DNA of 62,696 nucleotides, counting the filler, from Stramenopiles sp. TOSAG23-6 (taxonomy: Eukaryota): the NCBI GenBank assembly GCA_900128565.1. It is 7 parts of 7 records of this genome, joined end to end, with 100 filler letters (N's around TTAATTAATTAA, not from the genome) between each part and the next. Parts side by side here need not be neighbours in the genome. Positions count along the whole stretch, not along the records: positions 23,992 to 35,827 come from LT636232.1; 6 more parts are not named here. One strand, written 5' to 3'. Below, one piece after another: positions 7,021 through 54,800 of the stretch (the stretch's first letter is position 1; every line of letters starts with the position of its first letter). Made by a program: the position numbers and the translations under genes. Under the pieces are notes generated by a model. It saw only the letters and a program-made list of their open reading frames with translations. It did no database searches and was not told the origin of the DNA.

Positions 7021-7127
7021 AGCATACAATACAATGATTCGTCATTAAAAAAAAAAAAAAAAATGATTGTTTATTTGTATACTTATAGCACAATATATTA
7101 TATATGAGTGGATGGTTGAGCTATTAA

Positions 7128-7185
7128 AAAAAATCATTAGGTACAAAATTTCGTACTAAAAAAAAATGAAATTCATGATGCTTAT
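7128..7185 (-). mobile_element. Intergenic introner-family remnant
   Basis: Minus strand reads CATCATGAATTTC...TAGTACGAAATTTTGTACCTAATG. Confidence 0.55.
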
Positions 7186-7548
7186 ATATGACATTTGTGA
7201 AAATGACAAACAAATATCTGTTTTGTTATGAAAAAATATATTTTTTTTTTAATAAACAGAAAGAAGATAAAAAAAACGTCATAGAAAAATTTACACAAAT
7301 ATATAACAAACATCATTCTTTTATGTCACTACGACTTTTGTTAGTTAGATATCATGCTGACCGGCTGGCCTACTCGGTTCTTCTTTATAACCATAGCGAT
7401 AGCTAGAAAGAAACGCCATCGATTTTGACAATTTGACACGCGACACGAGTTCGAGTTCAGTTCGAGTTCTTATTTTCTTCTGGGAACACATCTTCTTGAT
7501 CAGTATAATCGTATAATCTTGTAATTATCTACCATTACATCCCAAGTA

Positions 7549-8570: not shown

Positions 8571-10141
8571 TCAGTCTTGACAGGCAAATGGTTTATAGAC
8601 ACCAGGCGATCCATGTGATGATTCTAGCCCTAACCCTAACCCTGAACAAATTCCAACAACCAAAATTATGCAAAATCCAATATTAAGTAAAACATATAAT
8701 GACACGAAAGGAACTTCTAAAAAGCCTACTCTTAAATATAATAACTTATAAGNCATGAGAATTGTTCCACTAGGGAGTAAATAAAATATCACATTTTGAC
8801 ATAGGCCATAAAAGAAAGCGAATAGATCTGACACGTGTCGTGAAATATATGTCAAATTTGAGATTGATTNCGTACAGATTTTGGTACAAAACAAATAAAT
8901 TTGAAAAGAAAGATGAAAACATACATAAACGGTACGACACAAGCTAAGATAAAGCAAAATGATACTAGTAAAATTGTCATACTAAACCACTGAAATATGT
9001 CTTGTGTTTTTGTCACAAAATGAAAAACTCCTTTATAATGTAGCGTTTTTCTTATTATTTGCAATAGGACTATTTGACGTATTGTATAACCAACTATNAG
9101 ATTAACTAATAATATTATGGTACAAGTTTTCATGATATACCAATTTTGTAGTATTTGTATTAACGTGGACGGTGTTTTTTCACCCATAATCATGAATGCA
9201 AGGCAACATAAAGATATATAGGCTGCAATGATAATAATTAAAGAAATAAAAGTTGCTTTCGGAAAATCACGCGGTTGTTTCATTTCTCTGACAATTTCCA
9301 AGTAAACATCACAGCTAGAAAAAACAAATTGAATACCTAAAATAGCATACGCTATATCCCAGACTTCACTTTTTAAATTTTGATTATCATAGATAGCTTT
9401 TGGAGTTAGAAGATTCAACTTTTTTCTTTCATTCTTTCCAAATAAAACACCGGAACTCAAAACAAAAAGGATCACAAATGAAAAACAAGATACCACACTA
9501 AAGTATACTACATTCGACAGCTTCTGAATCTGTGCTGGTATAATCACACATAAGCACATTATAATNGTAGAAGTCGGTAAACAAATTACATATTCAGCTG
9601 TCANTTGAACTAATTTTCCCCCTAGTCGAAGATACAAAGACATCGTGTATATTAAATAGAAAATATGGAAAAAGTACACAAACGAATACCACTTTTTACC
9701 TAAAATTTGATACACTNCATCAGCAAAATTTTGCGCATTTGGAAAAGCAATATGAAATCGTGTAAATATTATACTTGTGTAAAGTGTGACTAGAAAGAAC
9801 GAAAAAACAACTATAAAACCGTATACCAAGCCGAGAGCTCTAAAGTTACCCATAATTGACATAACTCCTGCACACCCCAATATGTTACTAGATTGTAACA
9901 GAATGGTATCTAATAAATTATTTCCCCCCTCCCTTACTTTAGTATTGTTTCTTTGCCGAAAATGTCTAGACAATGTATAATTTTCAATGTGCTGCAACTT
10001 GCGTGAATCAACCACTTTCTGAGAATCACTACTATTCGTGTGAATATACTTACTATTGGACACTTCATGTGAATCATTNTCGTCGAGTAGTNGAAGAGAC
10101 TCGACATCATCATTTTCTTTTTGATGTAAAGACATTACCAT
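8571..10141 (-). CDS. Amino acid transporter (Aa_trans/AAAP); exons 10141-8925 and 8832-8571
   Basis: Multiple TM segments, EMKQPRDF; PFM|SDLF rejoined after removing 8924-8833. Confidence 0.85.
8833..8924 (-). mobile_element. Introner-family non-canonical intron, GT-GT (92 nt)
   Basis: at|GTATGTTTTCATC...TTCACGACAC-GT|g; restores PFMSDLF. Confidence 0.75.
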
Positions 10142-20486: not shown

Positions 20487-20560
20487 TTAACTCTAACCCT
20501 AATAAATTTTAAAATATATCTAGTACAAAATTAAATGTGATAAAATGCAATGCATATTAT

Positions 20561-23839: not shown

Positions 23840-23995
23840 GTATGTTTTCAGGATCAATTTTAAATTTATTTATATTTCGTACGAAATTTTGNNNNNNNNN
23901 NNNNNNNNNNNNNNNNNNNNNNNNNNNNNNNNNNNTTAATTAATTAANNNNNNNNNNNNNNNNNNNNNNNNNNNNNNNNNNNNNNNNNNNNAACT

Positions 23996-24108: not shown

Positions 24109-24151
24109 CATTTGTTCTTTTCCTATTTCCCCCTTTTTTTTTCTATTTTAG

Positions 24152-25779: not shown

Positions 25780-25816
25780 AAAAAATGTATCCTTCGATCA
25801 TATTTTGCAAAGAAAT

Positions 25817-25919
25817 TCTTGTGGATGTTCGTTTCATCGTAAAAACGTCTTGTGGATGTTCNTTTNATTGTAAAAACGTCTTGTGNATGTTCTTTTTATT
25901 GTAAAAACGTCTTGTGGAT
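25817..25919 (+). repeat. ~31-bp tandem repeat (about 3.3 copies) in the prohibitin 3' UTR
   Basis: Repeated TCTTGTGGATGTTC...GTAAAAACG. Confidence 0.8.
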
Positions 25920-26076
25920 AGTGTGTGATATTATTTTATTATGATTGGAATGACATATTATGTTGTATTTGTTTTTGTAATAAAAGATGTACATAGTATA
26001 TAAAGCCTGTTATGTCTTTAAGTGGGTTTTCGTGTTTTTTTTTGTTTTCTTTATTTTTTTTTTTTTTATTTTCAAA

Positions 26077-28382
26077 TTATCGTTTTCTTTTGTTCCCTAT
26101 TATTGTATCATTTGAACGATTCATTACCTTTCGCATAGCATCCCAATCGCCTAATGTACCATCATGGGACTCTATAATTCGTGCATGCACATCAGGATAT
26201 ATTTTCTTCAAAAATTCACCAGCCATTTCACTTCTTTTTTTTTCTTTATTACGAGTTTGTTGAGATGTTTCACTGCCTCCTTTAGTGCCAAGCTTCTGAA
26301 CTATCCAAATTGGTCTTGGTTTTCTAACATGTCCACTACTTCCAACACACCCCAAATACATACAATTTGATAATCGCCACATCATAAATAAAACCATTTT
26401 TTCACATACTAAAACGCCTGCAGAAGGAATATCTGTAATATGTATCGCCATGTAACCGCCTTTATCCAACAAGCTCCATGCTCGTGATAACGAAACATAT
26501 AAAAAACCAACAAGCCAGTCATTAAACTGCTGAAATGTGTCCATAGATTGCCCCTTTAATGAAGTATATACTTCAAAATCAAAAAATGGAGGTGAAGTGA
26601 ATACGAGATCATACCTTTCTAATTGGCCTCTTCCTCCTTTTTTACTATTTTTATCCAATTTTCGTGGTAGAGCTGCTGTTTCAAAAGGCTCGTACACAAT
26701 AGTTGCATTTGTACGCATGTATTTTGAAAAACAATTTCAAAAAAAAAAACTAAAATTTGTTAGGTACAAAATTTCGTACGAAAAAAAATCAAAATTGAAA
26801 AAAAATAAAACCTACAGACTACGACCAGGTCGAGAAAGACGTTGAAAACGCTCGATGATTTTATCATGACCAGATTTAAGTTCAGAATTAGGATCACATG
26901 CTACATGTATTGTGAAAAAAAAAACATTTTAGTCAAACAAATTGTTAAGATACAAAATTTTCTACCAAAAAAAAAATTAAAATTTTTAAAAATGATGAAA
27001 ATGTACATATCTCTCAACACCTGCAGCAAGAGCACCGATGAGACGATCGCCCCAACCTGCACTTATATCTAATACACGAGTCGCCCTGAAGAGTTTCATA
27101 ACAGATGCTGCAAGACTTGCTTTAAATTGAGTACATATATTGTGAAAAATTATTTTACATTTAATTTTTTTGTTAGGTACAAATTTTTGGTACAAAATAT
27201 ATATATATATTACGTTCAATTTTGAAATCGGACATTCTCTTAGGCATTTCCACATGGCTTCCCGCATTGCAAATGGTGTTAAACCCTCAGGTCTTTCCAT
27301 TGTAGCTTCGATGAGTGACTTTTGAAATACTTTGTCTTCAGCATACATTTCTAAAGGACATAAAGTTTGTATTGTGAAAAAATATTTTTTTTTCGTGCAA
27401 AAAAATCGTTAGGTACAAAATTTCGTACGAAAAAAAAATGAAATTCATGATGAAAAGGTACTTGATCTTTACGCCTCGCTGACATTCTCTGAACTTCAGT
27501 GAAATAATCAGTCACAATGTCCATGTCCCAATACTCGCTATCTTTATGCATAAATAAAACAAAATTAAAATCATCTTTTTTTTGTGGATTACGCATTGCG
27601 ATCTGTAAAAAACCTCTAGGAGTTTTGAATTTCACATTAAAAGGTTTGAAGGTTTCATTAGAGACGTCGATGCTACACCTTTGTAAATTTCTGAATTTTT
27701 GGTCAATATCTGTAAGGTAATGCACTTTTAAGGGGAATGTGATATGACCCAATTGCATTAGTTGGCACATAGCNGTAACAATATAGCTTGCACCAAACTC
27801 TGTAACTAAAAGTTTTAACTTCGCCTTTGGTAAATGAATTTGGGAATTACTATCAATAAAATGATACATTAGAGCTCGGCATGATATTGCACCAATATCT
27901 CCTAGTAACTGTACAACACGATCATTTTTAATACTTCTTTCCTTGCATAAGATAGGAATCCATTCGCGGCGTAGTTGTCGCATTTTGCTACAAGCTTTAT
28001 TTGCTTCTTCAAGAAGAGCAGTGCGCAGATCTTTTGTTTTTTTACGTATTTTTTGCTCAACATCATCACACATACCAAGGAGTACACGTGTACGCTCTAC
28101 TCTACCTTCTGAACCTGACGGTGATTCAACTCTAAGATAATCAATTAACTTATCNCGCAATCCAACCAGCTTTANAAGATAAGTTTTTTTTCGCAGTAAG
28201 GTTTCATCACGTTGGCTCTGACATTTGTTCTCCCAACGAGAAACTAAGTCAAGGAGGAAGAGTAGAGGTTTTGAACCTGCCTCTCGACCTCGAACAACAT
28301 CAGCTGCTTCTTTCAATGCAGTTTCTTGACCACTGAGTAAAATATTAAGACGCTCATCTTCTGGGTCAAAAGTCTCATCCAT
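26077..28382 (-). CDS. SAM-dependent amino-(N6A/N4C) DNA methyltransferase-like protein, five exons
   Basis: ECTQFK, VLDISAGWGDRLIGA, Y|VACDPN and DLVFTSPPFFDFEVY reconstructed by removing four introner introns. Confidence 0.8.
26717..26815 (-). mobile_element. Introner intron, GT-AT (99 nt)
   Basis: ct|GTAGGTTTTATT...core...TCAAAATAC-AT|g. Confidence 0.8.
26905..27006 (-). mobile_element. Introner intron, GT-AT (102 nt)
   Basis: at|GTACATTTTCATC...CACAATAC-AT|; restores ERY|VACDPN. Confidence 0.85.
27135..27233 (-). mobile_element. Introner intron, GT-AT (99 nt, in frame)
   Basis: at|GTCCGA...CACAATAT-AT|gt; restores RECTQFK. Confidence 0.7.
27367..27461 (-). mobile_element. Introner intron, GT-AA (95 nt)
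   Basis: aa|GTACCTTTTCATCATG...CACAATAC-AA|; restores RKDQ|TLCPLEM. Confidence 0.85.
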
Positions 28383-31433: not shown

Positions 31434-34400
31434 TCATATCGAGTCTTCATAAATTTGNTCTAAAAGTTTTCTACCTGTAGATGCAGTTGACCTTAATCCA
31501 GATGTATTCGCCTCTTCTATTAATTCCTCTAGTGTAGCCGTATCTAATGTCTTCAATGCATTCCACATTCGTTTCCGCAACATTCCAACTCTTTCACTGT
31601 CTGAAGTATCCTTTTTACTTTCTTTAATAATGCCTTCAAAAACTCTTTGACTCTTTTCAAATTCTCTTGCTGCTTTCATTGCTTCTTTCCCCATTTCAAA
31701 CTTAGATCTAGGCCTTGGTTTAAGTGTTAATTTCACAATGCGGCTCTCAGGTCCATGATGTGAAGTCGATGCGANGTCTCCCATTTCTGACACTCCACTA
31801 CTTTGAGTGTTATGTTTTTCTTCTCTCCCACTTGGAACTACGGATTTTGATTGTCTTGAAGATATAACAGGGAATCTAGATTTAAGATCTGTAACTTCTG
31901 GGCTACGNACATAATCATATTCTGACTCNTTTCCTTCATTTTTTAATATATCGTTANCATCAACTTTTGTCTCTTCAGTTTTAATGTTTATGGAAAGATT
32001 CTCCAGTTCATTCACATGTTTTTTAAAGATTATATTCCACATAGGGTGTGCCATACCTTGGCGCAATGTTGCTATCAAAGACCCATCTTCGATGTCCCAG
32101 AGAGCGATTTTACAATCACTTGAACCAGTAAGTAATTTCGGCGGGTCTGCATTGTCTACAATAGTAGTGGATAATATAGCACTATCATGCGCCCGTTTCA
32201 CTTTCCAAGACACATCTGGTGCACACTGCTTTATTTGAGATATATCTATTTGAGATCTTTTCGGTGAACTTGGTGTAACCCGAGCATCCCANATAGACGG
32301 GGTGCTTCCTAACTTCTTCACTATAAGATCTTCCAAGGATTGTGCACGCAAGTCACCATATTCATCTCCAGTATATAAGGTCATATTTGGCGTGTGAAAT
32401 GCTGCAGAAACGGCTGTGCCGGGAATTCTNGCTTTAGATGACTGCTTAAATTGAAGAATTTTAGTGTGATTTAGACCACTTGAACGACATCCCCATATNT
32501 CGATATCGCCAGTCGACACTCCACAAGCAAAAAATGGGTAAGGTCCTAAAAATTGTATAAATGTCGTATGACCTCTGTATGCCTCGATCTTTTTAATACT
32601 ATTCACTTTGTGATGAAGCTTCGCCTCATTTGACTCATCTTTTCCATGTTTAATTACGCCCTCGAGTTTTCCATCTGTATAATTCCATAATCGAATGGTC
32701 GAATCAGCACTCCCTGTAGCAATAAGCGATAGTTCCTGAGAGTATGATGATGTAGTCAAATCATCAGTATGTCCTTGAAGTCTCTGTGGGTCTAAACATA
32801 ACAAAACTGCGTCATTCATTCCTTCATCAACATTATCATCATGAATGATTATTCTTCCCGACCAATCACAAGAAACAATGCACCCAGGTTCAGCAACAGG
32901 AGAATCACTGATTTTAGGACAATATAAAAGACTGGTTATCTCAGTTGGTTGTGGCATCAAACTTTTTACTTTTGAACCAGATCTAAGATTAACGGCAGAA
33001 ATGTTTCCATCATCGTCGCCTAAGAATACTACTCGTCCCTTATAATCCAAACAAGCTGCTGTAATTGTAGAGGGCATAATTGATCGGAACTCTTCTAAAA
33101 GTTTTCCATCTTTGGCAGACCATACTTTTACATTTTTTTCATGTGTAGAGACAATTATTTTTGTGTCAGGAGAAAAAAGAAGTGAAGAAACTGGCAAATC
33201 ATCTGAGAGGTTTCTTACTCCTGTACCTTGTGGCTTTTCCCTCTTGAACACTGACAAATACGTTTTAGATGTCGTCACGTACTGTAAAAAAATATTTCAA
33301 AAAAAAAATCGTTAGGTACAAAATTTCGTACGAAAAATAAATAAATTTAAAATGCATGATAAAAACGTACACTATCTGGGACGTCCGTTCTACTTTTCGA
33401 AATAAACCAGGACCATTTGTAACTTTGAATTCACGCGGGGGTATGTATGCAACTGCTGTTCCCTGTTTTATGTCTCCAGTAAAAGTTTGAAGGCAACGAA
33501 AAGTTCGAATATCCCATATTTTACAGATTCCGTCAGCATCAGTGGTCAAAACTTCATTGGAATCGTCACCTCCCATTCGAGTCACATTAACAAGTGACGC
33601 TGAATGTCCTTTGAGTGTAAATACCTCAGCTTCGCCAAACGGACTCCATACATATGCTTCGTGATCAAAACCAGCACTAACTAACAATTTTGAACTTGGT
33701 AAATAGGATAAAGATACGACACCAAATGTGTGTCCACGTAATATTTGTTTTCGAACTCCAGTAAAAACATGTAGTATGAAAAACTATTTTAGGAAAGAAA
33801 TCGTTAAGTACGGAATTTCGTACGAAAAAAAAATATTTGAAATTTATCATGAAAACGTACATCCCAGATACAAATATTTGTATCAAGTGAAGCCGACGCA
33901 ATTGTATCCAATGAACCCAGGTGGTGCAAATCCATGACCATATCGGCATGACCTTGCATTGCAGACGCTTTTTCACGACGATTTTGAATATCCCAAACAT
34001 GAACCAGTCCATTGACAGTACCCGAATACATTCGTTTGTGTGTATCTAACCAGCATAAACTCATATTAACACTGGGTGCAGGCCAACATAGTGGGGTGTT
34101 TCCATCATCACTTAATGCAACTTTATATTGCCGTTTTCCGCGGCTTAAACTCCACAGACCCATCGTAGCATCTCCAAATGAAAACATCATTCCGTTATAT
34201 TCTGGAACATATTCAGCAGCCATCGGAGCCCCTCGTCTTGCAAGGTCAATACTTGCTGATATTTGTGAGCTTTCGATATCATATATCCTAACAACTGATC
34301 CACGCTCTTCCATGATTGCTAATTGATCTGTTGGTTCCATATATACTGCATACTGTATATCTGAGGAGTGTCGATGTTTACGACAAGATTCACTTTGTCC

Positions 34401-34721: not shown

Positions 34722-35772
34722 CTATTGATTTTTTAGTAATTCAAACACTGAAGTTGACGAATTTGCTGTCTTGAGAAAATCCAATCTTAGTTTGAGCTTT
34801 CTTTCTTCACTTTTTTTGTTTTGTGTTGTTTCCTCAGTCAAAAACTTAGATACAGGGAAAGAGGAAGATCGAAGTCGTCCAGCAAATATTTTGGTGAACA
34901 ATATATCAAATTCGAAATTCGGTAAGTACATTTTTTTCTTTAAATTCAGAAATTGGTAAAAACGTAGATGTCAAAAAAAAAAAATCTTTTTTTGTTTAGG
35001 TACAAAATTTCGTACAAAACAAAATTAGAAATTTATGATGAAAACGAAAAAAATTTAGTTGTTAGGTACAAAATTTCGTATGAAAAATAAATTAGAAATT
35101 CATGATGAAAACGTACATGATTCGAGGACTAATCTTTGTTGTCTAATATTTCCCAATGATTTTAAAGTAGGATTGATAATTGTGGGTAAAATCTTCTCCT
35201 TTAAGAACCGGGTTTCGTTTACAATGTGACTACCGATAGTCTTTTTATTTCGAATAGATTTTTTGGAATATCGGGATTTCGTGTTTTTTGTTTCATAATT
35301 TATTTCGTTTCGTATTTCGTAATTTAAATCCAATAAAACTTTTCTTCTACATAGCGACAAATAATGGTATAATGCCAAACTTGATAAAGAATGTCTATTC
35401 TTATAAAACATATACTATGAAAAATATTTTTTTTGTAAAATTTGTTAGGTACGAAATTTCGTACGAAAAAAAAACTTGAAATGAATGATGGAAAAAATAC
35501 ACCTTAATGTCCCTAAGAAAATTTACCAAATGTCGTGACTGCTTTGCATCATCACTCTTTAGTATTTCTATAACTTTATCATATGAAATTGAGTTTTCTC
35601 CTGAATCTCTAAATAGTTTTTCAATGTTTGCAAGCAGTAAAAGGGACTTTATATTTGAAGATTGTTGAAATTTCTCATTAGGGTTAGTAGGGTTAGGGCT
35701 TTGAGAATATCGGTTAGAACTTTTCACTAAAGATGGACTTGGTATTCTGATTGAATTACTTCTTCTTTTAGT
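34722..35772 (-). CDS. Hypothetical multi-exon protein, 5'-partial; one likely homopolymer frameshift near 34935
   Basis: ORF segments separated by introner introns. Confidence 0.5.
34962..35116 (-). mobile_element. Introner intron with internally duplicated core, GT-GT (155 nt)
   Basis: Two tandem CGTTTTCATCAT...TACGAAATTTTGTACCTAA units. Confidence 0.7.
35410..35500 (-). mobile_element. Introner intron, GT-AT (91 nt); a canonical GT-AG alternative 35502-35415 is also in frame
   Basis: Family core present. Confidence 0.7.
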
Positions 35773-35972: not shown

Positions 35973-37284
35973 TTATAACTTTGAACAAATTGAATAATTC
36001 TTTGGACTCTTTAAAGTATACATTTTCTTACAAATCGTATCAAATCGATTCCATTCCGACATTGTTGATAGTAACGCAGCAGTGAGTGCAAGTGGCTGAT
36101 CTAGCATTATATGATGTCCCGCGGCTTTTATCTCAATGATTTGACATGGACCAACATCTTAGGTATAAAATTTGGTACGAAAAAAAAAATGATGAAAACA
36201 TACATGAACCTTGGCGCTCACATTCTTGTTTCACATGTTCATAAGCTACATTTTCTTGATTAAAAAATATTGAATTCTCGCCAGTATATAAACAACATTT
36301 ACATCGCACACTTGAAAGAATATTAGACAATACTTGAATTTCAGCTTCATGGTCAACAGCAGTCCTCAATTCAGGCACTCCGCCAAATGTATTAACTATT
36401 GTATGCCATGTTGTTTTCGCAAAAATTTCAGGATCAAATTTCCACGAATATAATGTAGATTCACCCAAAGATGCATGATATTTTTGAATTTCACTATGAA
36501 TTCGATGTACATCAGCATCTTCTACCAATGGCTTTGAGTTTTTTGTGTATTTTGCGTTTGGTACGTGTACGTGTCCTTTATAACCAGACCAATCTGTATT
36601 TGAATCAGGAACAACTGATGCAGCATTCTCCGACCAAAGACGGACACCATGAAACGATACATGATTTAAAATAAATGAATTCAAACAGGATTGAGATGGT
36701 CTTAATTTAAAACGCTTTAAAAGTGTTTCAATTTTTTTAAACATTCGCGGTCGTCTCCCCAAAGCTTTCTTGTGCTTCAACCGAGAAATGGGAAGCCAAG
36801 CTCTTAACATTTCCTCTGATCTAACGGGTGTGTCAATGACAATGAGGCCACCTAAATAACTCGATCGTTTGATATCATGTGCCAGAAACATTGATACTAA
36901 TCCACCATAACTGTGTGCAACTATGACAGGTTTAATGACTGTGGGGAAGTTCGAGTCTTTTAAAACACTAAATACCTCTAAAGCGTGAACTTGAATAGAA
37001 TAAGACTGTCTCCAGCCAGAGTCACCATTCCCTGATAAATCTACAGCAACTACTTGATATTTCTCAAGCAGTAGTGGTGCTATAAAGCTCCACCAATGTG
37101 CATTTGCTTGTGACCCATGGACAAGTAAAATTCCAGGTTTTTTAGTATTACGGTCCCAGTGAAGGTAGTGAATATTACACGAACATTCGTTCCCATCAAT
37201 TAAAAACGGTACCTTTACACTTCTGTGCTCATATGGAGTATGTATCGCATTACTAAACCATTCACAATGCTCTGAGGTCGACAT
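35973..37284 (-). CDS. Alpha/beta hydrolase with C-terminal SKL (PTS1); exons 37284-36204 and 36145-35973
   Basis: LLVHG, AHSYGG nucleophile, AGHH catalytic His in exon 2, ends ICSKL*. Confidence 0.9.
36146..36203 (-). mobile_element. Short introner intron, GT-AT (58 nt)
   Basis: at|GTATGTTTTCATC...core...GGTCC-AT|gt. Confidence 0.8.
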
Positions 37285-41239: not shown

Positions 41240-43003
41240 ATGAGTTGTTGTATTGACCTCTGTTTCGGTTGTACTTGTGAAGGTTTAGCTTGTTGTGGTG
41301 CAGTATGCTGTACCTGTTTGTCATCAAGAAAGCAACACCGACGAGATGATGAAGCGCATACATTCTGTTCGCGATTCTGTATCTGGTGTCAGTTTGCCTT
41401 TTATTGCATCATGGCTGGTGTAACAATGGTTTTAATCTTTATTATTGGAATGGCGCCGGAGTCCCTCGGTTTAGGTACGGCAAAGACAGGTGAAAATAAT
41501 TGTATCCAACAGCCGGGATGTGACGTCATAGTTCTTTCTATGTGTAATCCAAATATCTATAATTGTCCTGTAGACGATGATGATAATCCAGACACAGAAA
41601 AACCATTCAATCCGTTTTTTGAAAAATCACTTTCAATACAAGGAGATGTAGTAAAAACTTGTCGAATATTTGAAAGATGTATGTTTTATTTTTTTTTTTA
41701 ACAAAAAAATCGATTTTTTTTTCGTACGCAATTTTGTACCTAACGAATTTTAAGTTTTTTTTTTTGAAATATTTTTCAAAAATACATACGGTTCACATTG
41801 GACAATTCCTGCTTCCTCAGATACATCAATGGAATCTACATTACGAAAAACAAAACCAGAGTTATTTCGAGATCGCACTTGCTCAGATGCATCTTCAGAA
41901 GCAGATTGTGATATTCTTATTGGATGTAATTGTACGTTTTATGATGATTTTTTTTTACCAATTTTTTTTTCATACGAAATTTTGTACCTAACAAAACATT
42001 TTTACAAAAAAAAATATTTTTTCAAAATACATGGAGTGGTTCCTGTGGGGGGATGATAACAAAATGTAATGATATCACAGATACAGGAAGCAATGCTGGA
42101 GTGACTGCGCTTATTGTTATATTACTTATAGTTTTCATCGTATTTGTAGGGGTTGCTTTTATGCGTCATCGTGTAATTTTTCAAAATTGATTTTTTTTTT
42201 ACCAATTTCAAATTCATTTTTTTTCCTTATCAATTCTGTAACTAACAAATTTCGAATGTAAAATATTTTCTTCAATCCATACACTTTATCTATATGATGA
42301 AAAGATGAAAAAACTTGCGGATGAGAAGAAGGACCATAATAAAGAAAAAGAAGAAGAAGAAGAAGAAGAGGAACCAAATTATTGCTTGGAATGTCCACCA
42401 TTATGGTGTGTAAGATGCATGCCTACTAAAGTACGTAGCTCTTGTTGTGATGGTTGTTGTGATTGTGATGATGAAGAAGATGGAAACGTTAAAGCGACTG
42501 CCAAAGTTAGCCCCTTATCGCCAGAGGAAACAAAAGGTCCGCCTGAAAGAGGTGCCCAAATGTCAGACCCAAGAATGGGTGAAGTTGGTACAAATAAAAT
42601 AAATCGACCTAATTTACAAATTTCTCCTGATTCTGGTCGTGGTGGTCTTGATGGACTAGGTGATGTTGGATTGATGCAATTATCGGGTGCAGTGCCTAGT
42701 TTTGCTACTAATGATATCAATCGTTCAAGTAGCATGGCAGATTTTCGACAAAAACAAATTGAACAAGAACAAAAAAATCAACTCTTACAAATGGAAATAA
42801 CTCAACTTCGAATGGAGCAATCTCTAAATAATAATGCAAATATTCAGAAATCAGCGAGTATGAACAATATAAATCAAATGGGTAGTCAAATGGGTATTCA
42901 GAGATCAGCAAGTTTGAATCCAAATATGAATTCAGGAATGTCAAATTTGAATAGCATGAATACAAATATTCAAAAATTTAATGCAAATATTCAGAACTTT
43001 TAA
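41240..43003 (+). CDS. Cys-rich two-TM membrane protein, four exons
   Basis: Continuous frame after removing introns 41679-41787, 41932-42032 and 42173-42280. Confidence 0.7.
41679..41787 (+). mobile_element. Introner intron, GT-AT (109 nt)
   Basis: at|GTATGTTTTATT...core...AAAAATAC-AT|ac. Confidence 0.85.
41932..42032 (+). mobile_element. Introner intron, GT-AT (101 nt)
   Basis: tt|GTACGTTTT...core...CAAAATAC-AT|gg. Confidence 0.85.
42173..42280 (+). mobile_element. Degenerate introner intron, GT-AT (108 nt)
   Basis: GTAATT...GTAACTAAC...TTCAATCC-AT|. Confidence 0.65.
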
Positions 43004-43065: not shown

Positions 43066-45172
43066 TCAAAATAAACTACGCAATGTTTTAGTCAGTTCAA
43101 CTAAAGCGAGCGTGTCTCTTTCACAATATTCTAATAAAGACTTTCGTACTTTTCGTCTTTCCTTACCTGTATATTCTTTGGTCATGATAAACTTTTCCAG
43201 CATCACTGCAGCTAATTGGCCTCCATGAACATCTAAATCCTCATAGGACATGTCGGGTATTAAAGCAGGCAGAACTTTTTTAAGACTAAAACTACCATGA
43301 AAATTTGGATGGTATACGTAGTTTCGTATCACAGGTAGTAAATCGACAAATTTGTCATTCATGCTTAATAATATATCAGCATCCTTTGGTGGAAGAAAAC
43401 GAGAAAGATCGTGAATGACACGCTTCTCAAATGATGCTGAGTATTCATTGTGAAAAATAGTACAAAAAAATGATTTTTTCCGTTAGGTACAGAATTTACA
43501 ATCAAAACAAAATCGAATTAAACAATACATTTGAAATGAATGATGAAAATATACATGCAACAAATGTTTTTACATTTTTCAATTTTTTTACCAAGGTAGC
43601 GGCTAACTTTGGACGAGGGTCATTGGCATCTTCTGATAGCCATTCAATATGTGATAATTCCCCATTACATGACAGATAATGAACCGATACCTGCACAGCT
43701 ACTTGACCGTATGGTCTTACATGAGGCCAGATAGGTATAACACTATTGATTGCTTCAAAATCAATGTATTTTGGAAAAATATTTCAAAAACAAATCGTCA
43801 GGTACAAAATTTTTATAAAAAAAAAATTCGAATTTGAAAATAAAATAAAATAAAATAAAACATTCATGAAAGCTACTGGAGGTATAATCTTACTCAATTC
43901 TTTTTCAAGTCCAGGTTGAATGACTAATTTATTTTCTTTATGTGATTCAACTTGTCTCTTTTGAATAGCTGATAAAGATATATCAGAAGGTATATCCTCA
44001 ATTTTATCAATTTCGCGAAAACGCAAAATTTTCATCAATTTTTCATTTTTTCTGTATAATTCATCAATATTTCCAATTCCTGTTTGATTACACCGATTGT
44101 AAAAAGGACAAAGATATGGTTTTTTACAATGTTTCCCCGGAGTCACTTTGGGTCTCCTCTCTGTTTTTGTTATACTGTCTCATGAAAAAAAAAAATCAAA
44201 TTTTTTTGTTAGGTATAAAATTTCGTATTAAAAAAAAAAAAAGTCAATTTTGAAAACGTACACATCTCGTAAATGTTTTGCTATGTAAGGAATATCGGAA
44301 ACCAAGTCACGTGCCTCCAAAGTTACATTATTACGTTTAAAAAGTGATTGTTTGCTATTGTGACTTTTATTGTTGTTGTTGTTGTTGTTGTCTGACGATG
44401 ATGGTTGATCTTTTGTAAAATTAGAATAAGATGGAGTGGGCTGGTTCATTTGTAACCGATTTTTTAATTCTTTCACTAAAATATTTTTTTTTCTATTTGC
44501 TTTAATTCCAAAACTTTTACAATACTTTTGAAGATCGCGATAACTTAATGTATCTATAGACGCACAATCTAATTTAAGATGTGAGGAAGAGTTGATTTTA
44601 ATATCCGAAAATACACTTGTATTTGAAATTTCGTAATCCTTATTTAACGTCAAAACATCCACCTGATCAACTGTAACTCCTTGAGACTCTAGGACATATA
44701 TTTGAACGGCTACATCAAATATATGTTGTTTCTTAACCGAATTTGTCGACTTGACTTCTATAATATTCCAAGCACAATCATTATCTGTATTGCGTTCAAG
44801 AACATCTACCGCAACAAAAATACCGTCGTGAGTAAACGAAGCTTCATAAATTAAGGACGATTCACTTTCCATGGCACGTTTCGTAGCCTCAACCATGAGA
44901 CTTTTATTTGATTCATATTGAATAAGAACACCATTTGGAAATGATTCCATTGCTGCTTTGCCTACCCTGTGTCCATTGTCAAAAACAGCCTGTAACTCGG
45001 GCGATATTTCAAGTTCTGGTGCATCAGGTTCATGAATAGTATTCCAAAGCAACAATGGACACTGATGACCTGAAAGTATTCTAGACTTTGATAAACCCCC
45101 TATAGAAGACGCATATCGATGTCGTGCTAAATTAAATAAAGAAATGCGGATATACTTACTCAACATGTGCAT
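43066..45172 (-). CDS. DUF2779-family protein: PD-(D/E)xK nuclease, SAP-like insert and RNase H-like domain; four exons
   Basis: LSKSR..G.QCP, VDVL...IIEVKS, DFE, SFEK, GSFSLKKVLPAL, LLEYCERDT. Confidence 0.85.
43443..43554 (-). mobile_element. Introner intron, GT-AT (112 nt)
   Basis: Restores FVAYSASFEK. Confidence 0.8.
43764..43865 (-). mobile_element. Introner intron, GA-AT (102 nt)
   Basis: at|GAATGTTTTATT...TCCAAAATAC-AT|t; restores AFIDFE. Confidence 0.8.
44175..44261 (-). mobile_element. Introner intron, GT-AG (87 nt)
   Basis: GTACGTTTTC...ATACCTAAC...CATGAGAC-AG|. Confidence 0.85.
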
Positions 45173-45574: not shown

Positions 45575-47709
45575 ATGACAGACAAAATTTCAGAAGCAGA
45601 TTCACTAAAATCTGAATCTTATTTTGTATCTTCTGACGAAGAACTAGACAATATATGCGGTGATTCTCACAATTCCTTGCTCAAACGGTCACATTCCCCA
45701 ACATTATCTATATCAACAGGATATTCTATAGAAGAGAAGGAACCATCCGATTTAGCTAGTTTTGCTCTTTTACCAGAACCTTTAGAGTCTGGTAGAAGTG
45801 TAGAAGCTTTAGAGTTACTCCGCCATGCCCAAGATTTTTCGTACATAGGTGCTTATGCTCAGGCTGAGTCTTGCTTACGGTCAGTTTCTCACAATAATCC
45901 TAAAGATGGTTTTGTCATGACTCGATATGTGACTTTGCTACAGCGACAAGTTTTTAATGATGCTAGTGAAAGTTCTAGCAAAATGGAGCTACAAAAACTC
46001 ATAATAGAATATCTAGACAAGCTTATTGTAAATATCACACTTCGTGTAGAAGGCCTCAGTGAAATTGAAGCATATCAGCACAAAGCCGAACTGGCTTGGG
46101 CTCTCCTATTACGAGGTTTTATTTCTTGGTGGCAACGAGATTTTAATCGTGCAAAGGAACTTTTCAATGCAGCGTCTACAGCTGATGATAAATATGCACC
46201 AGCGGAGACCGCTCAAGCTTTGCTACTTAAAATGGAAGGCAATTTAGTAGATTCAGAGAGACGTTATCGACTTGCACTTTCACTTGATGGTGAATATACT
46301 TTAGCGCGTCAAGGGTTAGGGTTGTTGCTTCAACGGACTAAACGATTTGGAGAAGCTGAGAGACAATATGAGAGAATACTTGAGTCTGACCCAGAGTTTC
46401 AACCTGCACGAAAACAATTAAAGATTTTGCGTGCACCAAAACCAAAACCCAGTCAAAAAGGATGGCAAGATGATGTAGTTTTGAAGCCTGTGTGGGATAA
46501 TGAGATTGAAACAGATTCCTCTTCCCATAGAGGTATGTTTTTAGAACCCTAAACCCTAATGAATTTTGTGTCTACATTTTTTTTCATCCGAAATTATTTT
46601 TTCATATGCAATTTTGTACCTAACGAGTTTTTTTTTTTTTTTTTTCACAATGCATGTGATTGGGGAGTAGATAAATCAAAAGCCTTTAGTACCCCAGAGA
46701 AACACATAGCTGGCGCAGGTTTCCAGGCAGGTTTGCGAATGGTCGGGCGACGAGTGAATAAGAAAGGTGATCGAATTTACATGACTTCAAAACCTGTAAC
46801 TCTGGGTGGTGATGGAAATATAGGTGAATTTGTTGCATTTGTTCCAGATAAAGTTACAGCAAACATGTTTGAAGTGAACAAATGGAGTCTCGAATTAGTC
46901 CGGCGTATCTTAGTTCCAGCAAGAAAGAAATATATGGCTCTTCGGTTTCTTGCCAAATCTATGGAAAATAAAGTCTTACGATGTGGTGATGTACTATCTT
47001 CGTTTAAAAATACATCTATAGGTTTACAGAGTGCGGAAAAGTTAATTTCATCACCCGCCGATGTATCATCTACAAGACATAAAAAAGAGCAGCTGAACAA
47101 ATGGATGCGTGCAGCAGCTAGTGCAAGTTGCCTTGTTGCTGATACTGAATCCGTCCTCGACGAAGCAAATAAAAGACTTACAATACAATATAATGCAAGG
47201 CAAGCAAAAGATACTAAAATCCGTGAATCTCTTTGGAGTAGAATTAAACTGGCACAAGCTGATATACTTTTCTGTCATGAGACTCTAAGAATGCACGAAA
47301 TGAACCAAGAAGTAAAAATGATGATGAAAACATTAATTGATAAGACTGATATTCATATGGAAAGAGCTATCCAATGGCTCGAAACCCCTTCAAATTTTCA
47401 TGAAAAAGAAGAAATGAATGAAACCCAAGAAAGCTGTCGTTTGGCTGTTGACCGAGCTGTAGAAGAAGTAAAAACAATGAGCTCTAGTTTCAAGGGTAAT
47501 ATGAAACCTGTTCTTGAATTAGAAGATAGAACAAATCGAAATAAGAAGAGCCTTGAAGATTCTCGCATTACATTAAAAACATCAGGCGATATAATCAAAT
47601 TGATGAGAAAGCAATTATTTGAAGTAAATGTAATGTTGCAAAAAATACCAAAGCTTGTTGATTCTTTGGAGTTATGTCACAGATTTTGGAATGAAGCAAT
47701 GGAATACAT
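45575..47709 (+). CDS. TPR-repeat plus coiled-coil protein, 3'-partial
   Basis: TPR motifs; exons 45575-46532 and 46656-47709. Confidence 0.75.
46533..46655 (+). mobile_element. Introner intron, GT-AT (123 nt)
   Basis: GTATGTTTT...TTTTGTACCTAAC...CACAATGC-AT|gt. Confidence 0.8.
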
Positions 47710-48824: not shown

Positions 48825-51800
48825 ATGAAGGTGGGAGATACTATAGTTGCTCTATACGACTATATCCCAGATGAGAATGATGGTTTAAGTCTTGAGGAAG
48901 GTTTAGAACTAGTTGTTATTGAAATAGACGGTGACTGGACGTGTGCACGACTCTGTTCAGGTGCTACTAGTGGTTGGATACCGACAAACTATGTTGAAAA
49001 GGTAAAAAAGAAAAAGAAAAAGGAAGTTCCCTCTCTTCCGAATAGTAGTCGGCGTGTATCGCCTTTACAGCACGAGCATTATATGATTACGAAGCCGAAG
49101 ATGAAGGTGAAATGACGATCAGGCTCGGGGACTTGATCTCTGTTATTGAAGACTCAGATTCTGACTGGTGGGTTGGTACGTTACGGGGCAAAACAGGATC
49201 ATTTCCGCGTACATATGTTGAAGTGGTGTCCAATACTTCACGGGACGATACAACTGAATCAGTATCATATGATGCTGAGATCAGAGCTGAAAAAGAAAAT
49301 AAACGAGAAGAAAAGGAACGTCAACAACGTGAAAAAGAACGCACTGAGCGAGAGCAGCGTGAAAAAGAGCAGCGTATAAAACGAAGGAAGGAACGTGAAG
49401 AAGCTGAACGTAAGAGAAAGATGGAAGCAAGTGCGAAAAAATCAAATATAAAATCTAAAAAAAATGGCATAAAGAAAGCAAAGAAAAATAATAACAGTGC
49501 ATTAATGGCTGCTATTGCAGGTAAAAAGAAAAGTGGACCACCCTCTGGTGATAGAAGTGCATTAATGGCTGCTATTGCAGGTAAAAAGAATAAGAAATCG
49601 AGCAAACGACAATGCGAAGAAGAATCAGGTCATCAATTATTTACAAAAAGTAAAGAAAAACTAAATCGTAAAAAAAAAGATCGATTGCGTCGTCGGAAAG
49701 CTGTGGAATCTGTACGTTTTCATCATGAATTTTAAATTAGTATGTAATTTTTGTAGAAAGTTTTGTACCTAACTATTTTTTTTAAACCAAAAAAAAAAGA
49801 TATTTTTCACAATATTCGTACGCCTTATTGCGGATGTTCACGGAGTGGATGATATGGTTTTATTGCCTAAACTATCTGACAAATCAATCGTAGGAAATTT
49901 ATCTCAGCGTCACAAGAATGATATCATTTACACTTATATTGGAAATGTTTTAATTTCGTTAAATCCTTTTAAATGGATAAAAATGTATGACGAATTTCAT
50001 ATCAATAAGTACAAAGGTAAACAACCTGTCGATGTGCCACCTCACGTATATGCTGTTGCAGAGTCAGCGTATAGGGAAATGAATGAAGAGGAAGAAAGTA
50101 TGTTTTATTTTTTTTCAATTTCGATTTTTTTTTCGTACGAAATTTTGTACCTTGTACCTAACAAATTTTACAAAAAAAATATTTTTTCACAATACAAGCC
50201 AATGTGTTATAATCAGTGGAGAGTCTGGAGCTGGTAAAACCGAAGCTGCTAAGCAAATCATGAGATATATAGCTGCTGTCAGTGCTGGTGGTCATTCAGA
50301 AGCTGTAGCTCGTGTTAAAGATGTCATTATGGAAAGTAATGCAGTATTAGAGGCATTTGGTAATGCAATGACTTTGAGAAATAATGTACGTTTTCATTTC
50401 AATTTCGAATATTTTTTTTCATACGAAATTTTGTACCTGACAAGTTTTTTTAGATTTTTTGAAATATTTTTTCATAATCCATAATTCTTCTCGGTTTGGT
50501 AAATATTTGGAAATACAATTTGATCTTCAAGGAACACCAAGAGGGGGAAAAATTACAACATATTTACTTGAAAAATCTCGAATTGTCCGTCCAAGTGAAG
50601 GGGAAAGATCTTTTCATGTACGTTTTATTTTTTTTTCAATTTCGATTTTTTTTTTTATAAAAATTTATATTTTATATGATGCTTTTTGGTATGCCAGAAT
50701 CACTTCGATCAAAATTAGAACTCGGTTCTCCTAATGAATTCGCGTACTTAAGACAAAGTGGAACATATACCATTGATAATGCTGGTGGTAAAATTAACGA
50801 TAAAACAGAATATCAAGATATGACAAGAGCTATGGATAAGATGGGAATCACGAAAAATGATCGTCTAGAAGTATTTAAATTATTAGCAGGAATTTTACAT
50901 CTAGGTAATGTAACTTTCAAACCCAAAAGAATTGGATCTGCTGATGGTTCGTGTGTTGGTGATACACGTGCACTCGAAATTACCGCGGATCTTTTAGGTG
51001 TAGATTCTCAGTGCTTGGAATTTGCGTTGACATTTAGAATGATGCATACCGGTGGGGAAACATTTGAAGTACATTTTCATCACTTGATTTTTTAAAATTA
51101 TTTTTTTTTTTTGGTATGAAATTCCATACCTAACGAATTTTACAAAAAAAACTATTGTTGCATAATACATGTCCCAGAAAATCCAACAAAAGCAAATGCT
51201 GCAAGAGACGCACTTGCAAAAGCTATTTATTCAAAAATCTTTGATTTTCTTGTAAAAAAAATCAATTTATCATTGAAATTAAAAGATGAATTTGATGAAT
51301 TTGATAATGAGGACGATGAAGATGATTTACTTACGATTGGAGTTTTGGATATTTATGGTTTTGAAATATTTGAGACTAACTTTTTTGAACAGTTTTGTAT
51401 TAATTATGTCAATGAAAAATTACAACAGATTTTCATTGAGCTTACGTTAAAAGCTGAACAGGAAGAATATTCAAGAGAAGGAATTACTTGGACAGAAATC
51501 CCATTTTTTAATAACAAAATTGTTTGTCAACTGATTGAAGCTCGAAAGCCTCCAGGAATCTTTACAATATTAGATGACACCTGCAAAACCATTCACGCAG
51601 AATCACGGGGAGTTGACATTAAGTTTTTGGATAAATTGAAGAGCTTTCAATCAAAACATAAACACTTTACCGGGATGAAACACAAATTTGTTGTGAAACA
51701 TTATGCTGGAGATGTGGAGTATGTATGTTTTATTTTTTTTTTAAACAAAAAAATCGAATTGTTTTTTCGTACGAAGTTTTGTACCTAACAAATGTTTTTA

Positions 51801-54800
51801 GATTTTTTTGAAATATTTTTCCAAAATACAGACGGTGGATGGATTTTGTGTAGCTAATAAAGATTCTTTGGTAAGTGATATTGCTGATGTCTTGGCAACA
51901 AGTGAAAACATTCTTATCAAAGATTTTTTTTCTGATAATTGTCTAAAAAATGNAAAAAAAAAGAAAACATCTGGTGAGAAGATTAAAAATCAATCGAAAG
52001 CTTTAGTGAAAAAACTTATGGCTGCTAGTCCTCATTATATCAGATGTCTTAAACCAAATGATAAAAAAAGAGCTGATTTTATTAATCCAAATAGGATTTC
52101 TCATCAGTGTAAATATTTAGGTCTTTTAGAAAATATCAAAGTTCGCCGCGCAGGGTTTGCATATCGAGCAGAATTTCATCGTTTTGCAGAAAGATTTCGA
52201 CTTTTATCTTGTAAAACTTGGCCGAAGCGCTTCGTTGGTACTGAAAAAGAAGCATGTAGAGCAATCATAAATGATGCAAGTAGAATTATACCGGAATTAA
52301 ATGGCCCCGAGGCTCAACTAGGAAAATACAAAGTCTTTATTAAACGTCCAAAAACGTTTTTTAAACTGGAAAAACAACTTCAATTACGGCGCAGTGGTTT
52401 TGCTCTACAAATTCAAAATCTTTGGAGAAGATATTTAGCTCGTCGGGATCTTGTGGAATTACGTCTTTCAATAGGTCAATTATATACGAATAATAATAAA
52501 AGTCGAGCAAGGGGAAGTATTTATCGTCCCTATGATGGAAATTATTTACAACGATTGCCTGAAGCTGTACGTATTGCAGTAAATGACATTATCAGCTATC
52601 ATGATGACACAGAATTTATTGTTTTTGGTGATGTGATTAAAAAGCTTCAATGTGGTATTGGTGATGATCGAGATGGTATCATTGTTTCGAGAATCTTTGT
52701 TATTACGAATAAAGCAATATATATTATGGAACAAATGCAACGATGTCGTCAACTAATAGTCGGAAATGAAGGTCATATGACCTTACCTTCAAAACCAAAG
52801 AAATCAAACATGTTTTCTAGTTTATTAGGCAAATCTACAAAAACTATCGAAGAACTTGAAGCGAGTCAAGAAATTAGTGCCAAAAAATTCAAACATGTAC
52901 ATCTTCGCCGTCGTACTAAATTAATCAACATTACTAGTGTCACTGTATCAACCCTCAGTGATGATTTATTAATGATTTCAGTCAAAGAGGATAATGTTTC
53001 ACCAGTTCCAGATAAAAGTCACTGGTTACCAGACTCCCAATGTGATGCTTGCATGCAAACAGGTAAAGTATTTGGTAAGATATTTAATCGAAGACATCAT
53101 TGTAGATTGACAGGAAATCAGTATTCGGATAGTGTCTGTAATGCTTTAGTATTATTGCCAGACTTAGGATGGTATACTCCACAGCGAGTTCACGATGGTG
53201 CTATTGGTTTTGCTAGTACTGAGATGCGTGAAGATACTGTTCTTCTCTCTCAAAGAAAAACTGAAATTGCAGCTATTTTACATGAACGTTGTGCCAAGGA
53301 TAAACTAATGAAACGTTTTATTTACTTTTCGAATCAAATACGCCCAAAACAAGCTCCAATGAAAGAGTTATCGTGTACCGTTGCTGGGACAATTAATATT
53401 CAAAAATTTCGAAGTTCTAGTAGTAATTTGACCGATGCGAAACCTATTGGGTTTGAGGATTGGACTGTCTCTTCCCCAGCTGGTGTTTTACAAGATGTTG
53501 TAAAAGCTCGTTTAGAAAGAGATGAAGTACGGAAAGTCCGCCGTCAGAGAGAACGCGAAGACGAACGCCGAATTCGTATGTTTTCATGATGAATTCCATT
53601 TTGTTTTTGGTATGAAATTCCGTACCCTAACGATTTTTTTTATACAATATTTTTCACAATGCATGTAAAGATCGCCAAGAAGCTAGAGCCGCGGAGCGTG
53701 CTGAACAACGCGCTCAGCGTATTGCAGCAAAGCGTGCACGAAAAGCAGAATTACGAAAAAATGGTAAAAAAACTAAATGTGACCGGAAAGTGAATGATAA
53801 GTCTGTTATGTCATCAAAAAAAAAACGAGACGTTCCAACTTGGATGAAGAAAAAAACTACAACAAAGGTAGCAACAGTTCCAAATTCAAAACTAAAATTG
53901 AAAACAAGTAATATTATAGAAACAAAAAAAGTACAATCAAAAGTCTCTCGTCCACCTCCTCCAGCATTACTCTCCAACACAACTAAAAAGAAAACAAGTA
54001 TTCGTCCACCTCCTCCAGCATTACTCTCCAATACAACTAAAAAGAAAACAAGTATTCGTCCACCTCCTCCAGCATTACTCTCCAACACAACTAAAAAGAA
54101 AACAAGTATTCGTCCACCTCCTCCAGCATTACTCTCCAATACAACTAAAAAGAAAACAAGTATTACAAGTATTCGTCCACCTCCTCCAGCATTACTCTCC
54201 AACACAACTAAAAAAAAAACAAGTATTCGTCCACCTCCTCCAGCATTACTCTCCAACACAACTAAAAAAAAACAAGTATTCGTCCACTTTTACCAAAGGT
54301 TCCAAAAAGAGATAATAAATCAAAAAGTCAACCAGCGTGGATGGATCAACGACAGAACCAATTATCAGTTGTCACTGAAAAACAAAAGTTTACCAAGGCC
54401 AAAAAACGTTTATCCAAAGAAATTCCAATAAAAGATTCAACAAACATGGATACACCAAAACGTTTACCCATGCGACCTGTGCCAAAACTAAAAAAACTGA
54501 AGAAGAATAAAAAGGAAGTAGTGAAAGACAATAAAGAAGTTAAATCAAAAAAGACTCGAAATGATGGAAAAGAAAATAAAGAAGATAAAAAATCTATAGA
54601 AAGTCTAAAGAAAGCACAACAGGTAGCTGTAGATGCAAGAGATTTTCGTAAGGCAGCAGACTTGGGAGATAAGATAAAAGTATTAGAAGAAGAGCAAAAA
54701 AATGCAGAAAATAATCGAAACAATCAGAAGAAAATAGAAGAACTCGAAATTCGTTTGGAAAAGGCTGTGAAAAATCGAAATTATCACCTGGCTGGCGATC

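Follow-up and report, generated by a model that had tools for sequence, protein, structure and literature searches.

Coding regions in a stretch of DNA from Stramenopiles sp. TOSAG23-6 are repeatedly interrupted by short, similar sequences, which start with GT and end with a variable dinucleotide. The question raised by these repeats is whether they are mobile elements that leave the transcript as introns, and what the two bases at their 3' end are. In an initial annotation of the locus the 3' splice dinucleotide was taken to be one copy of a 2-base pair (bp) target-site duplication (TSD). The window, as the whole stretch analysed (62,696 bases) is called here, is made of contigs chained by N44-TTAATTAATTAA-N44 linkers, and includes many single N. 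The repeats found in it form one family. They are removed with exact length, in a register that puts GT at the 5' end, and the majority of their 3' ends differ from AG. A family of introners with a non-canonical 3' splice site, inserted at the DNA level with a 2-bp duplication and spliced out, is a fairly probable explanation of these features.

A family model was built from eight clear copies, and the window was searched with nhmmer at a cut-off of E<0.001. The 35 matches obtained (best E=1.5e-17) correspond to 32 distinct loci in about 50 kb of unique sequence, once three matches in a duplicated contig are removed. Full copies are 87-121 nucleotides (nt) long, and their pairwise identity ranges from 55 to 92%, with a median of 71%. 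The pattern of the family is GT[AG][TC]GTTTT ... TTTCGTACGAAATTT[TC]GTACCTAAC ... ATATTTTTCA[AC]AATAC + 2 nt. Copies start with GTATGTTTT or GTACGTTTT, share the conserved core TTTCGTACGAAATTT(T/C)GTACCTAAC, and end with ATATTTTTCA(A/C)AATAC, followed by two bases, usually AT. Four copies fall in the initially annotated 26717-27461 interval (minus strand; 26815-26717, 27006-26905, 27233-27135 and 27461-27367), and the family occurs where it had been reported. Outside the window, a further copy that shares the family ends (AT^GTATG..CACAATAC^AT, where carets mark boundaries) and has matching flanks breaks an ORF (open reading frame) in the metagenome contig L001. This is the single locus retrieved by scanning metagenome contigs for further copies, and none was found in the viral contigs and genome contigs scanned. 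In RNA and DNA runs compared with 47863-59688, the element stretches reach about a thousandfold the contig depth of unique exons, a depth that is not to be equated with copy number.

In five of six copies the RNA folding z-score is between -0.2 and -1.5, i.e. folding is no better than in shuffles, and the value of the sixth (z=-4.2) is owed to a copy-specific insert. There is no sign that the internal palindrome GTACGAAATTT(T/C)GTAC is under selection for pairing. Paired cells amount to 77.6%, versus 76.5% in shuffled sequences (114 of 500 shuffles are as high), and one compensatory pair was noticed.

Removal of the element along with the last two bases fuses exons into whole-gene ORFs at 25 introns, located in 11 genes. 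Seven introns belong to a myosin gene, and 18 are spread over ten other genes, in which ORFs are fused over the whole tested interval. The notion that removal of the element and of the terminal dinucleotide restores the coding sequence exactly is hence supported, at the myosin gene for 7 junctions of 7. In a methyltransferase-like gene, which includes the 26717-26815 copy, the ORF fuses to 648/649 codons once spliced, and the ORF of a WD40 gene measures 969/970 codons spliced versus 620 unspliced. Removal from the myosin gene of all seven introns (six copies plus two bases each, and the truncated 50618-50666 copy) gives a 1576-codon ORF which has the terminal stop only. When exons are scanned singly against Pfam, positions in the Myosin_head profile continue across exon ends, as from 495 (+1 residue) to 497 and from 318 (+4 residues) to 323, in addition to the values reported in Table 1, and all seven junctions are contiguous in the profile. 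The orthologues P0243, P0244 and P0246 (identity on the query exon 78% for the first two, 67% for the third) are similarly colinear, without indels, at 7 junctions of 7. Among transcript-derived proteins of 101-322 aa none is near-identical to exon 51171-51722, the top match having 72% identity.

The exon parts of the public gene model P0241 are identical to the window (49049-54431), and P0241 is therefore a model of the same myosin locus. It is colinear with the orthologues at one junction of seven only, that of the GT..AG intron. At the other six it features, in this order, a deletion of 17 residues, insertions of 1 and of 11 residues, a read-through, a deletion of 8 residues and a truncation, because the model avoids non-AG acceptors. 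It follows that canonical-only splicing cannot account for the myosin gene, and that the intron class has been missed in that annotation. Other gene models of TOSAG23-6 are likely to be wrong in a similar way.

The 5' dinucleotide is GT in 24 introns out of 25, the exception being the copy at 43865, in which it is GA by homology. The acceptor is variable, as initially reported. AT is found at 16 introns, AG at 3, AA at 2, GT at 2, TC and TT at one each, and 22 of 25 ends are therefore non-AG. The proposed 5' site (GTATGT or GTACGT) is part of the conserved sequence of the element, in which a branch-point-like box (TACCTAAC) is also found. The CTAAC box is located 34-44 nt from the 3' end in five copies counted by eye, and the cut is thus not at a fixed distance from it. 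In typical copies the interval from the box to the cut is devoid of AG, and in most introns the cut comes after a pyrimidine followed by A. A 3' site of the major spliceosome in which the last base is free is the simplest reading, and removal of the elements from transcripts is probably spliceosomal. U12-type introns start with ATATCC or GTATCC, and their TCCTTAAC box is located 10-20 nt before the 3' end. Neither sign is found here, given the 5' end and the position of the CTAAC box described above, and an Rfam scan of the window was empty.

Identity of the flanks was evaluated in the 23 copies with both ends resolved. The truncated copies 36203 and 50618, halves at contig ends, intergenic fragments and the unresolved 35116 and 60529 were left out. 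The two bases preceding the element and the two bases at its end are identical in 12 of 23 copies (AT/AT in nine, AA/AA in two, GT/GT in one), and the L001 contig adds one match of one. The 14 matches in 28 copies initially counted are thus reduced upon curation; flank identity is present, but weak. By shuffling 3' dinucleotides among copies, 8.4 matches are expected (p=0.028), and the three non-AT matches have p=0.027 by the same procedure. In a stricter subset of 17 copies p values are 0.017 for all matches and 0.012 for non-AT matches. The non-palindromic matches singled out at first, aa/aa at 27461-27367 and 50098-50197 and gt/gt at 33370-33277, are correct, and non-palindromic inverted pairs among the flanks are zero. 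Since ATGTAT/ATACAT is palindromic, AT/AT pairs cannot tell a direct from an inverted repeat. The claim that the acceptor is a TSD is weakly supported by the overall count (p~0.03), a signal owed to three loci (AA/AA twice, GT/GT once). With a pairwise identity of 71%, an estimated half or so of genuine 2-bp duplications would still be intact, and 12 of 23 is therefore compatible with duplication. In dinoflagellate introners, splice bases derived from the TSD are reported to be converted after insertion (bioRxiv 10.1101/2020.10.14.339549). The terminal dinucleotide is plausibly, and rather probably, a 2-bp TSD, a conclusion that is statistically thin and unproven.

Longer duplications were also considered. 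For a 3-bp duplication (CAT) matches at position -3, counted from the flank table and the copy sequences, are 6 of 23, about the number expected by chance. The downstream exon starts with GT in 9 of 25 cases (p=4e-6 versus 5.5%), and since GT is invariant in the intron a 4-bp duplication (ATGT) is inseparable from a site preference.

The preference for AT, already noted in the initial annotation, is strong on the exon side. In the upstream flank C is found at -3 in 11 of 28 copies, A at -2 in 21 of 28 and T at -1 in 22 of 28, and the element is followed by A in 22 of 25, T in 20 of 25 and G in 15 of 25. Compared to the coding background, AT before the element is in excess (11 of 23 versus 8.6%, p=1e-6), as are C (p=0.011) and G (p=8e-6). 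In an independent metagenome run the loose ends of 47 and 36 contigs give the consensus ..CAT before the element and TG after ATAC+A. Flanks of the CAT^..^ATG type minus one AT correspond to a palindromic CATG insertion site, a symmetric target of the kind that a transposase dimer would choose. Partial copies are found also outside ORFs, and opposite in orientation to neighbouring genes, which favours insertion at the DNA level. Copies lying within ORFs are sense-oriented without exception, an outcome expected from selection.

In the explanation favoured here, a short non-autonomous mobile element would have spread into the coding exons of a marine protist with gene-dense, AT-rich DNA, and would leave the transcript as a spliceosomal intron. 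The element would supply its own 5' splice site and branch-point-like box, and the 3' cut would fall two bases beyond the conserved end (..TTTTTCA[AC]AATAC). The intron would thus end C-A-T^G, which departs from the canonical CAG^G in the last base, with the last two places open to any dinucleotide. These two bases would be one copy of the 2-bp duplication generated by DNA-level insertion into a (C)AT(G) site, and removal of the element with one copy of the dinucleotide would give back the original codons exactly. Spliceosomal removal, the duplication and DNA-level transposition are all inferred. It is conceivable, if somewhat short of an even chance, that the spliceosome of this protist dispenses with the G of the 3' AG and keeps a pyrimidine and an A (C-A-N^G), preferring T and accepting any base, which would have let one transposon family with a 2-bp CATG duplication fill genes with GT..AT introns.

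Several observations weigh against this explanation, or against parts of it. Matches are not significant when flank positions are tested one at a time, as in a published introner survey (PMC9860276): 16 of 23 are found versus 14.3 expected (p=0.14) at one position, and 16 of 23 versus 13.8 (p=0.11) at the other. One off-register control reaches p=0.018, and the duplication excess is on these grounds marginal. Flank pairs are mismatched in 11 of 23 copies, and in 7 of these 11 AT is on the intron side and not on the exon side. This suggests that AT is selected at the acceptor or is borne by the element, and also fits a decayed duplication. CAT^ on the exon side and the G further downstream resemble the canonical CAG^G, and may reflect splice context just as well as the choice of a transposase. 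The inverted termini initially interpreted as terminal inverted repeats (TIRs) cannot be regarded as such. Among 18 full copies, perfect terminal complementarity extends over 4 nt in six, over 3 nt in another six and over 0-1 nt in the remaining six. These runs are too short for TIRs, for which the criterion of the same survey is 6 nt or more. Neither a transposase domain nor a long partner was found in the 37 scanned of the 50 window ORFs of at least 150 amino acids (aa). Three copies break the rule of the conserved end plus two bases. The 35502 copy ends 2 nt early with respect to the prediction of the family alignment, according to frame analysis; the 50618 copy is devoid of both box and conserved end, and terminates in TT; the 36203 copy uses an internal AG at CCTAAG. 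As to transcripts, the joints listed in RNA and DNA runs over 47863-59688 are all repeat-to-repeat, none of those listed being exon-exon, and an RNA contig (run X6 record 19, 50421-50635) is unspliced across exon 4.

Many of these points are shared by an account in which introners insert without duplication, have their own ..ATAC-AT end, and use AT as the preferred 3' dinucleotide, AA/AA and GT/GT pairs being coincidental. Elements would settle after CAT^ because splicing is efficient there, or by reverse splicing and reverse transcription into sites similar to proto-splice sites. This account is unlikely, and is the one that fares best among the alternatives. The 16 introns of 25 that end with AT, the 7 mismatched copies of 11 with AT on the intron side only, the lack of significance of locus-specific matches position by position, the resemblance of CAT^GT and CAT^G to canonical CAG^GT and CAG^G, from which each is a single base away, the lack of a usable TIR and the exclusive sense orientation of copies in ORFs all fit it. 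TSDs, moreover, have been recognized in 49 of the 130 introner families of determinable status in the 2022 survey (PMC9860276). Against it stand the three non-AT direct matches, found among the 7 of 23 paired copies with a non-AT intron end (p~0.03), and the partial copies outside ORFs and in antisense, which reverse splicing into mRNA does not predict.

Far less probable is that the register is shifted by two bases, in which case introns would be NN..AC (mostly AT-AC), with the constant AC as acceptor and a variable 5' dinucleotide. The AT-AC pair is tolerated by the major spliceosome. When flanks match, as in 12 copies, GT..NN and NN..AC yield an identical mRNA, so that ORF continuity alone cannot discriminate between the two. 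In the NN..AC register, however, an in-frame TAG is created at 51723, and Ser (49712), His (50618) and Arg (53576), each kept in three of three orthologues, are replaced. The 5' site is therefore the GT of the element, and the variable dinucleotide the acceptor. Conservation of GTATGT/GTACGT at the proposed 5' end points in the same direction.

Elimination of the elements from DNA, in the manner of ciliate internal eliminated sequences (2-bp repeat, one copy of which stays), is barely credible. The elements are short, AT-rich, located within coding sequences and flanked by a 2-bp repeat, one copy of which is retained, which speaks in its favour. However, the long ORFs of the window are bounded by standard stop codons, the element has a 5' splice site and a branch-point-like box, the repeat is AT and not TA, and a DNA contig from the independent metagenome run X3 (record 13, 53122-53977) spans 53576-53664 with the element still in place. 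That the elements are never removed, the genes being dead or the assembly wrong, would fit a contig chain with many single N and a near-identical contig present twice, as well as the lack of an RNA junction among the joints listed, but is close to refuted: a single rule gives back full ORFs at all 25 interruptions in 11 genes, the three orthologues are exactly colinear, and an independent run has the same element at the same place.

Introns and partial copies identified in the window are listed in Table 1.

Table 1. Members of the repeat family in the window. Flanks are given as the two exon bases before the element/the two last bases of the intron.
Feature	Position	Strand	Ends	Flanks	Remarks
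Intron copy	26717..26815	-	GT..AT	CT/AT	mismatch; nhmmer E=2.7e-15
Intron copy	26905..27006	-	GT..AT	AT/AT	nhmmer, ORF fusion
Divergent intron copy	27135..27233	-	GT..AT	AT/AT	5' half unlike family; nhmmer E=0.03, model positions 35-90
Intron copy	27367..27461	-	GT..AA	AA/AA	non-palindromic match
Intron copy, WD40 gene	33277..33370	-	GT..GT	GT/GT	non-palindromic match
Intron copy, WD40 gene	33769..33860	-	GT..AT	AT/AT	
Intron copy	35412..35502	-	GT..AT	AG/AT	ORF fusion 200/200 codons
Truncated copy	36158..36203	-	GT..AG		5' half only, 46 nt, ending CCTAAG; alpha/beta-hydrolase ORF 427/428 codons spliced
Intron copy	41679..41787	+	GT..AT	AT/AT	
Intron copy	41932..42032	+	GT..AT	TT/AT	
Divergent intron copy	42173..42280	+	GT..AT	GT/AT	
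Intron copy	43443..43554	-	GT..AT	AT/AT	3' motif ATGA+AT
Intron copy	43764..43865	-	GA..AT	AT/AT	5' GT mutated to GA by family homology
Intron copy	44175..44261	-	GT..AG	GT/AG	canonical
Intron copy	46533..46655	+	GT..AT	AG/AT	ORF fusion
Myosin intron 1	49712..49817	+	GT..TC	CT/TC	Ser kept in 3/3 orthologues fits GT..TC register
Myosin intron 2	50098..50197	+	GT..AA	AA/AA	just 5' of P-loop; profile 83 (+2 residues) then 86
Myosin intron 3	50386..50482	+	GT..AT	AT/AT	splits a 12-residue stretch; profile 147 to 148
Myosin intron 4, truncated	50618..50666	+	GT..TT		49 nt, no CTAAC box; profile 192 to 193; His in 3/3 orthologues
Myosin intron 5	51069..51170	+	GT..AT	AA/AT	profile and orthologues
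Myosin intron 6	51723..51831	+	GT..AG	AT/AG	canonical; sole junction correct in public model P0241
Myosin intron 7	53576..53664	+	GT..AT	TC/AT	Arg kept in 3/3 orthologues
Intron copy	58514..58608	-	GT..AT	AT/AT	
Intron copy	60661..60761	-	GT..AT	AT/AT	top family-model match, E=1.5e-17
Intron copy, amino-acid transporter gene	8833..8924	-	GT..GT	AT/GT	same locus as 20823-20914 in duplicated contig
5' half copy at contig end	11850..11901	+			repeated at 23840-23891
Similar half copy	47710-47762	+			
Similar half copy	35775-35827	-			
Similar half copy	59636-59688	-			
Similar half copy	59789-59861	-			
Partial copy	7106..7195	-			between two plus-strand genes, outside ORFs; nhmmer
Non-coding partial copy	5249-5336	+			directly 3' of stop codon
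Non-coding partial copy	25101-25192	+			
Non-coding partial copy	34666-34754	+			

Some copies deserve a comment. Family homology suggests that the 27135-27233 copy is removed as the others; the retained version would also be in frame and free of stops. At 43764-43865 an alternative GT..AC intron (43766-43861) is likewise in frame, the ORF fusions measuring 655/656 and 657/658 codons. The 46533-46655 copy features an additional telomere-like CCCTAAACCCTAA stretch at 46542-46575 (plus strand), absent from all other copies. At 49712-49823 GTACG is found at the start of the intron and again at the start of the downstream exon, and because of this 5-nt direct repeat the splice register can slide there across five bases. 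Two partial copies (35116-35053 and 35046-34993) are arranged head to tail at 34972-35116, on the minus strand, as a composite intron. Core fragments and repeated TTTGTTTGGTACGAT pieces are clustered at 25051-25230, within a stretch (23992-26077) without long ORFs; the cluster may be a decayed nest of copies.

The sequence hosting the repeats is gene-dense, with a G+C content of 27-39% per 2-kb window. The encoded proteins are ordinary eukaryotic ones (SH3-myosin-TH1-FYVE protein, WD40 protein, ATG9, COQ7, AIM24, RPS9), and the closest named relatives of the RPS9 and myosin are stramenopiles. DNA near-identical to the window is carried by seawater metagenome runs. Contigs 1-11901 and 12002-23891 are 99.87% identical (11,901 versus 11,890 bases, two gaps) and do not differ from each other in presence or absence of elements; the pair looks like a co-assembly duplicate and not like a genomic tandem repeat. 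Five contig ends (11901, 23891, 35828, 47762, 59688/59789) fall within element copies, and the repeat itself is thus the cause of the assembly breaks. Long elements, if existing, would fall in the gaps so made. The protein-kinase ORFs 2240-3070 and 1376-2239 (minus strand) are joined via an in-frame TAG at 2240-2242, which takes the place of the D of the HRD motif (..NKYVIKL*LKPEN). Just upstream, at 2265-2300 (minus strand), lies a possible 36-nt mini-intron (GTAC..AAATAC+TT, with CAT before it), and the 2240-2300 locus could be a pseudogene, a base error or another tiny copy. The myosin tail ends with seven near-identical repeats of about 18 residues each (54000-54431, plus strand).

Comparison of relatives bears on the age of the introns. 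In P0001, a relative with 67% identity over 163 residues, the ORF reads HYAGDVDYSAEGF uninterrupted across the site of the 51723 intron. In P0004, close kin of P0001, the ORF breaks two codons before the same site. P0001 and P0004, closely similar, thus differ in the interruption of the myosin ORF after HYAGDV, which suggests that presence or absence of an intron, a different one and richer in GC, varies within a related lineage. P0244, a 1554-residue protein encoded by one 9183-nt contig, is colinear with the spliced product, and its gene is probably uninterrupted by introns.

Bursts of intron gain are at present best explained by introners, and the few lineages with non-canonical ends show how flexible the spliceosome is. 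If a normal 5' site and branch box go together with a free last base, the changed step would be narrowed down to recognition of the 3' splice site, which could be addressed via U2AF, via Slu7/Prp18/Prp8 or via the way in which the first and last bases of the intron pair. If the spliceosome of this protist indeed dispenses with the 3' G, mobile elements and splicing machinery would have changed together in a further independent case, after Fritillaria and Amoebophrya, and in the presence of a textbook 5' site and branch box the change would be traceable to the second catalytic step or to U2AF. Automatic models force GT-AG, and the proteomes used for the lineage would then be systematically wrong. 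The protein sets of uncultured marine protists may need re-annotation, as indicated by P0241, wrong at six of seven junctions.

Introner elements in the sense of Gozashti et al. (2022) are many similar copies found as introns in unrelated genes, and the 32 loci, with 25 introns in 11 genes, are of this kind. The introners of marine algae (Micromonas, Aureococcus, Chrysochromulina, Symbiodinium, Polarella; PMC9860276, bioRxiv 10.1101/2020.10.14.339549, PMC11282704) are also short non-coding elements present in many copies in exons of unrelated genes of a marine host. They carry one splice site and obtain the other from duplication of the insertion site, and the length of the mRNA is unchanged after splicing. 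The Chrysochromulina family is similar in that the 5' site is its own, the 3' site is co-opted and TIRs are lacking. In contrast, duplications measure 3-9 bp in these algae and supply a canonical AG or GY, while here the putative duplication is 2 bp, usually AT, and the acceptor is non-AG.

Introns of the tunicate Fritillaria borealis are derived from transposons, take the 3' dinucleotide from the duplicated target, and need a spliceosome tolerant of non-AG ends (PMC11282704, PMC13326754), which according to the latter report are handled by divergent U2AF paralogues. They are, however, mostly AG-AC or AG-AT, non-canonical at both ends, and have TIRs, whereas the introns described here start with GT (24 of 25), within a yeast-like GTATGT, and are free in the last base or two only. 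Amoebophrya, another marine protist, hosts repeated introns with direct repeats across the borders, variable splice dinucleotides and no internal transposase (PMC7789003). The source describes inverted-repeat hairpins of 8-20 nt and direct repeats of 3-5 nt; pairing in the TOSAG23-6 family is 4 nt at most, and position -3 matches in 6 of 23 copies. Euglenid nonconventional introns lack GT-AG and feature CAG/CTG pairing near the ends (PMC11282704), and differ from the family in both respects, the 5' GT being conserved here and a CAG/CTG pairing motif being absent.

Miniature inverted-repeat transposable elements (MITEs) of the Tc1/mariner type generate a 2-bp TA duplication and have family-specific TIRs. 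Like them, the repeats have a (putative) 2-bp duplication at a short palindromic target, but the dinucleotide duplicated here would be AT, located within CATG, instead of TA, TIRs are absent, and a transposase is not known.

Surveys drop families with unfamiliar splice sites that lack RNA support (PMC12130899). A family like the TOSAG23-6 repeat would be missed both by this rule and by surveys based on annotation, and no description of a protist introner family with GT-AT or other non-AG ends was found in the open-access literature. Transposon-derived introns that borrow a splice site from a duplication are already established, as are relaxed splice sites in Fritillaria, Amoebophrya and euglenids (PMC11282704, PMC7789003). 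The TOSAG23-6 family differs from them in that a non-AG acceptor is combined with a 5' site and branch box of the canonical kind, in the putative duplication of 2 bp, and in the lack of TIRs and hairpins.

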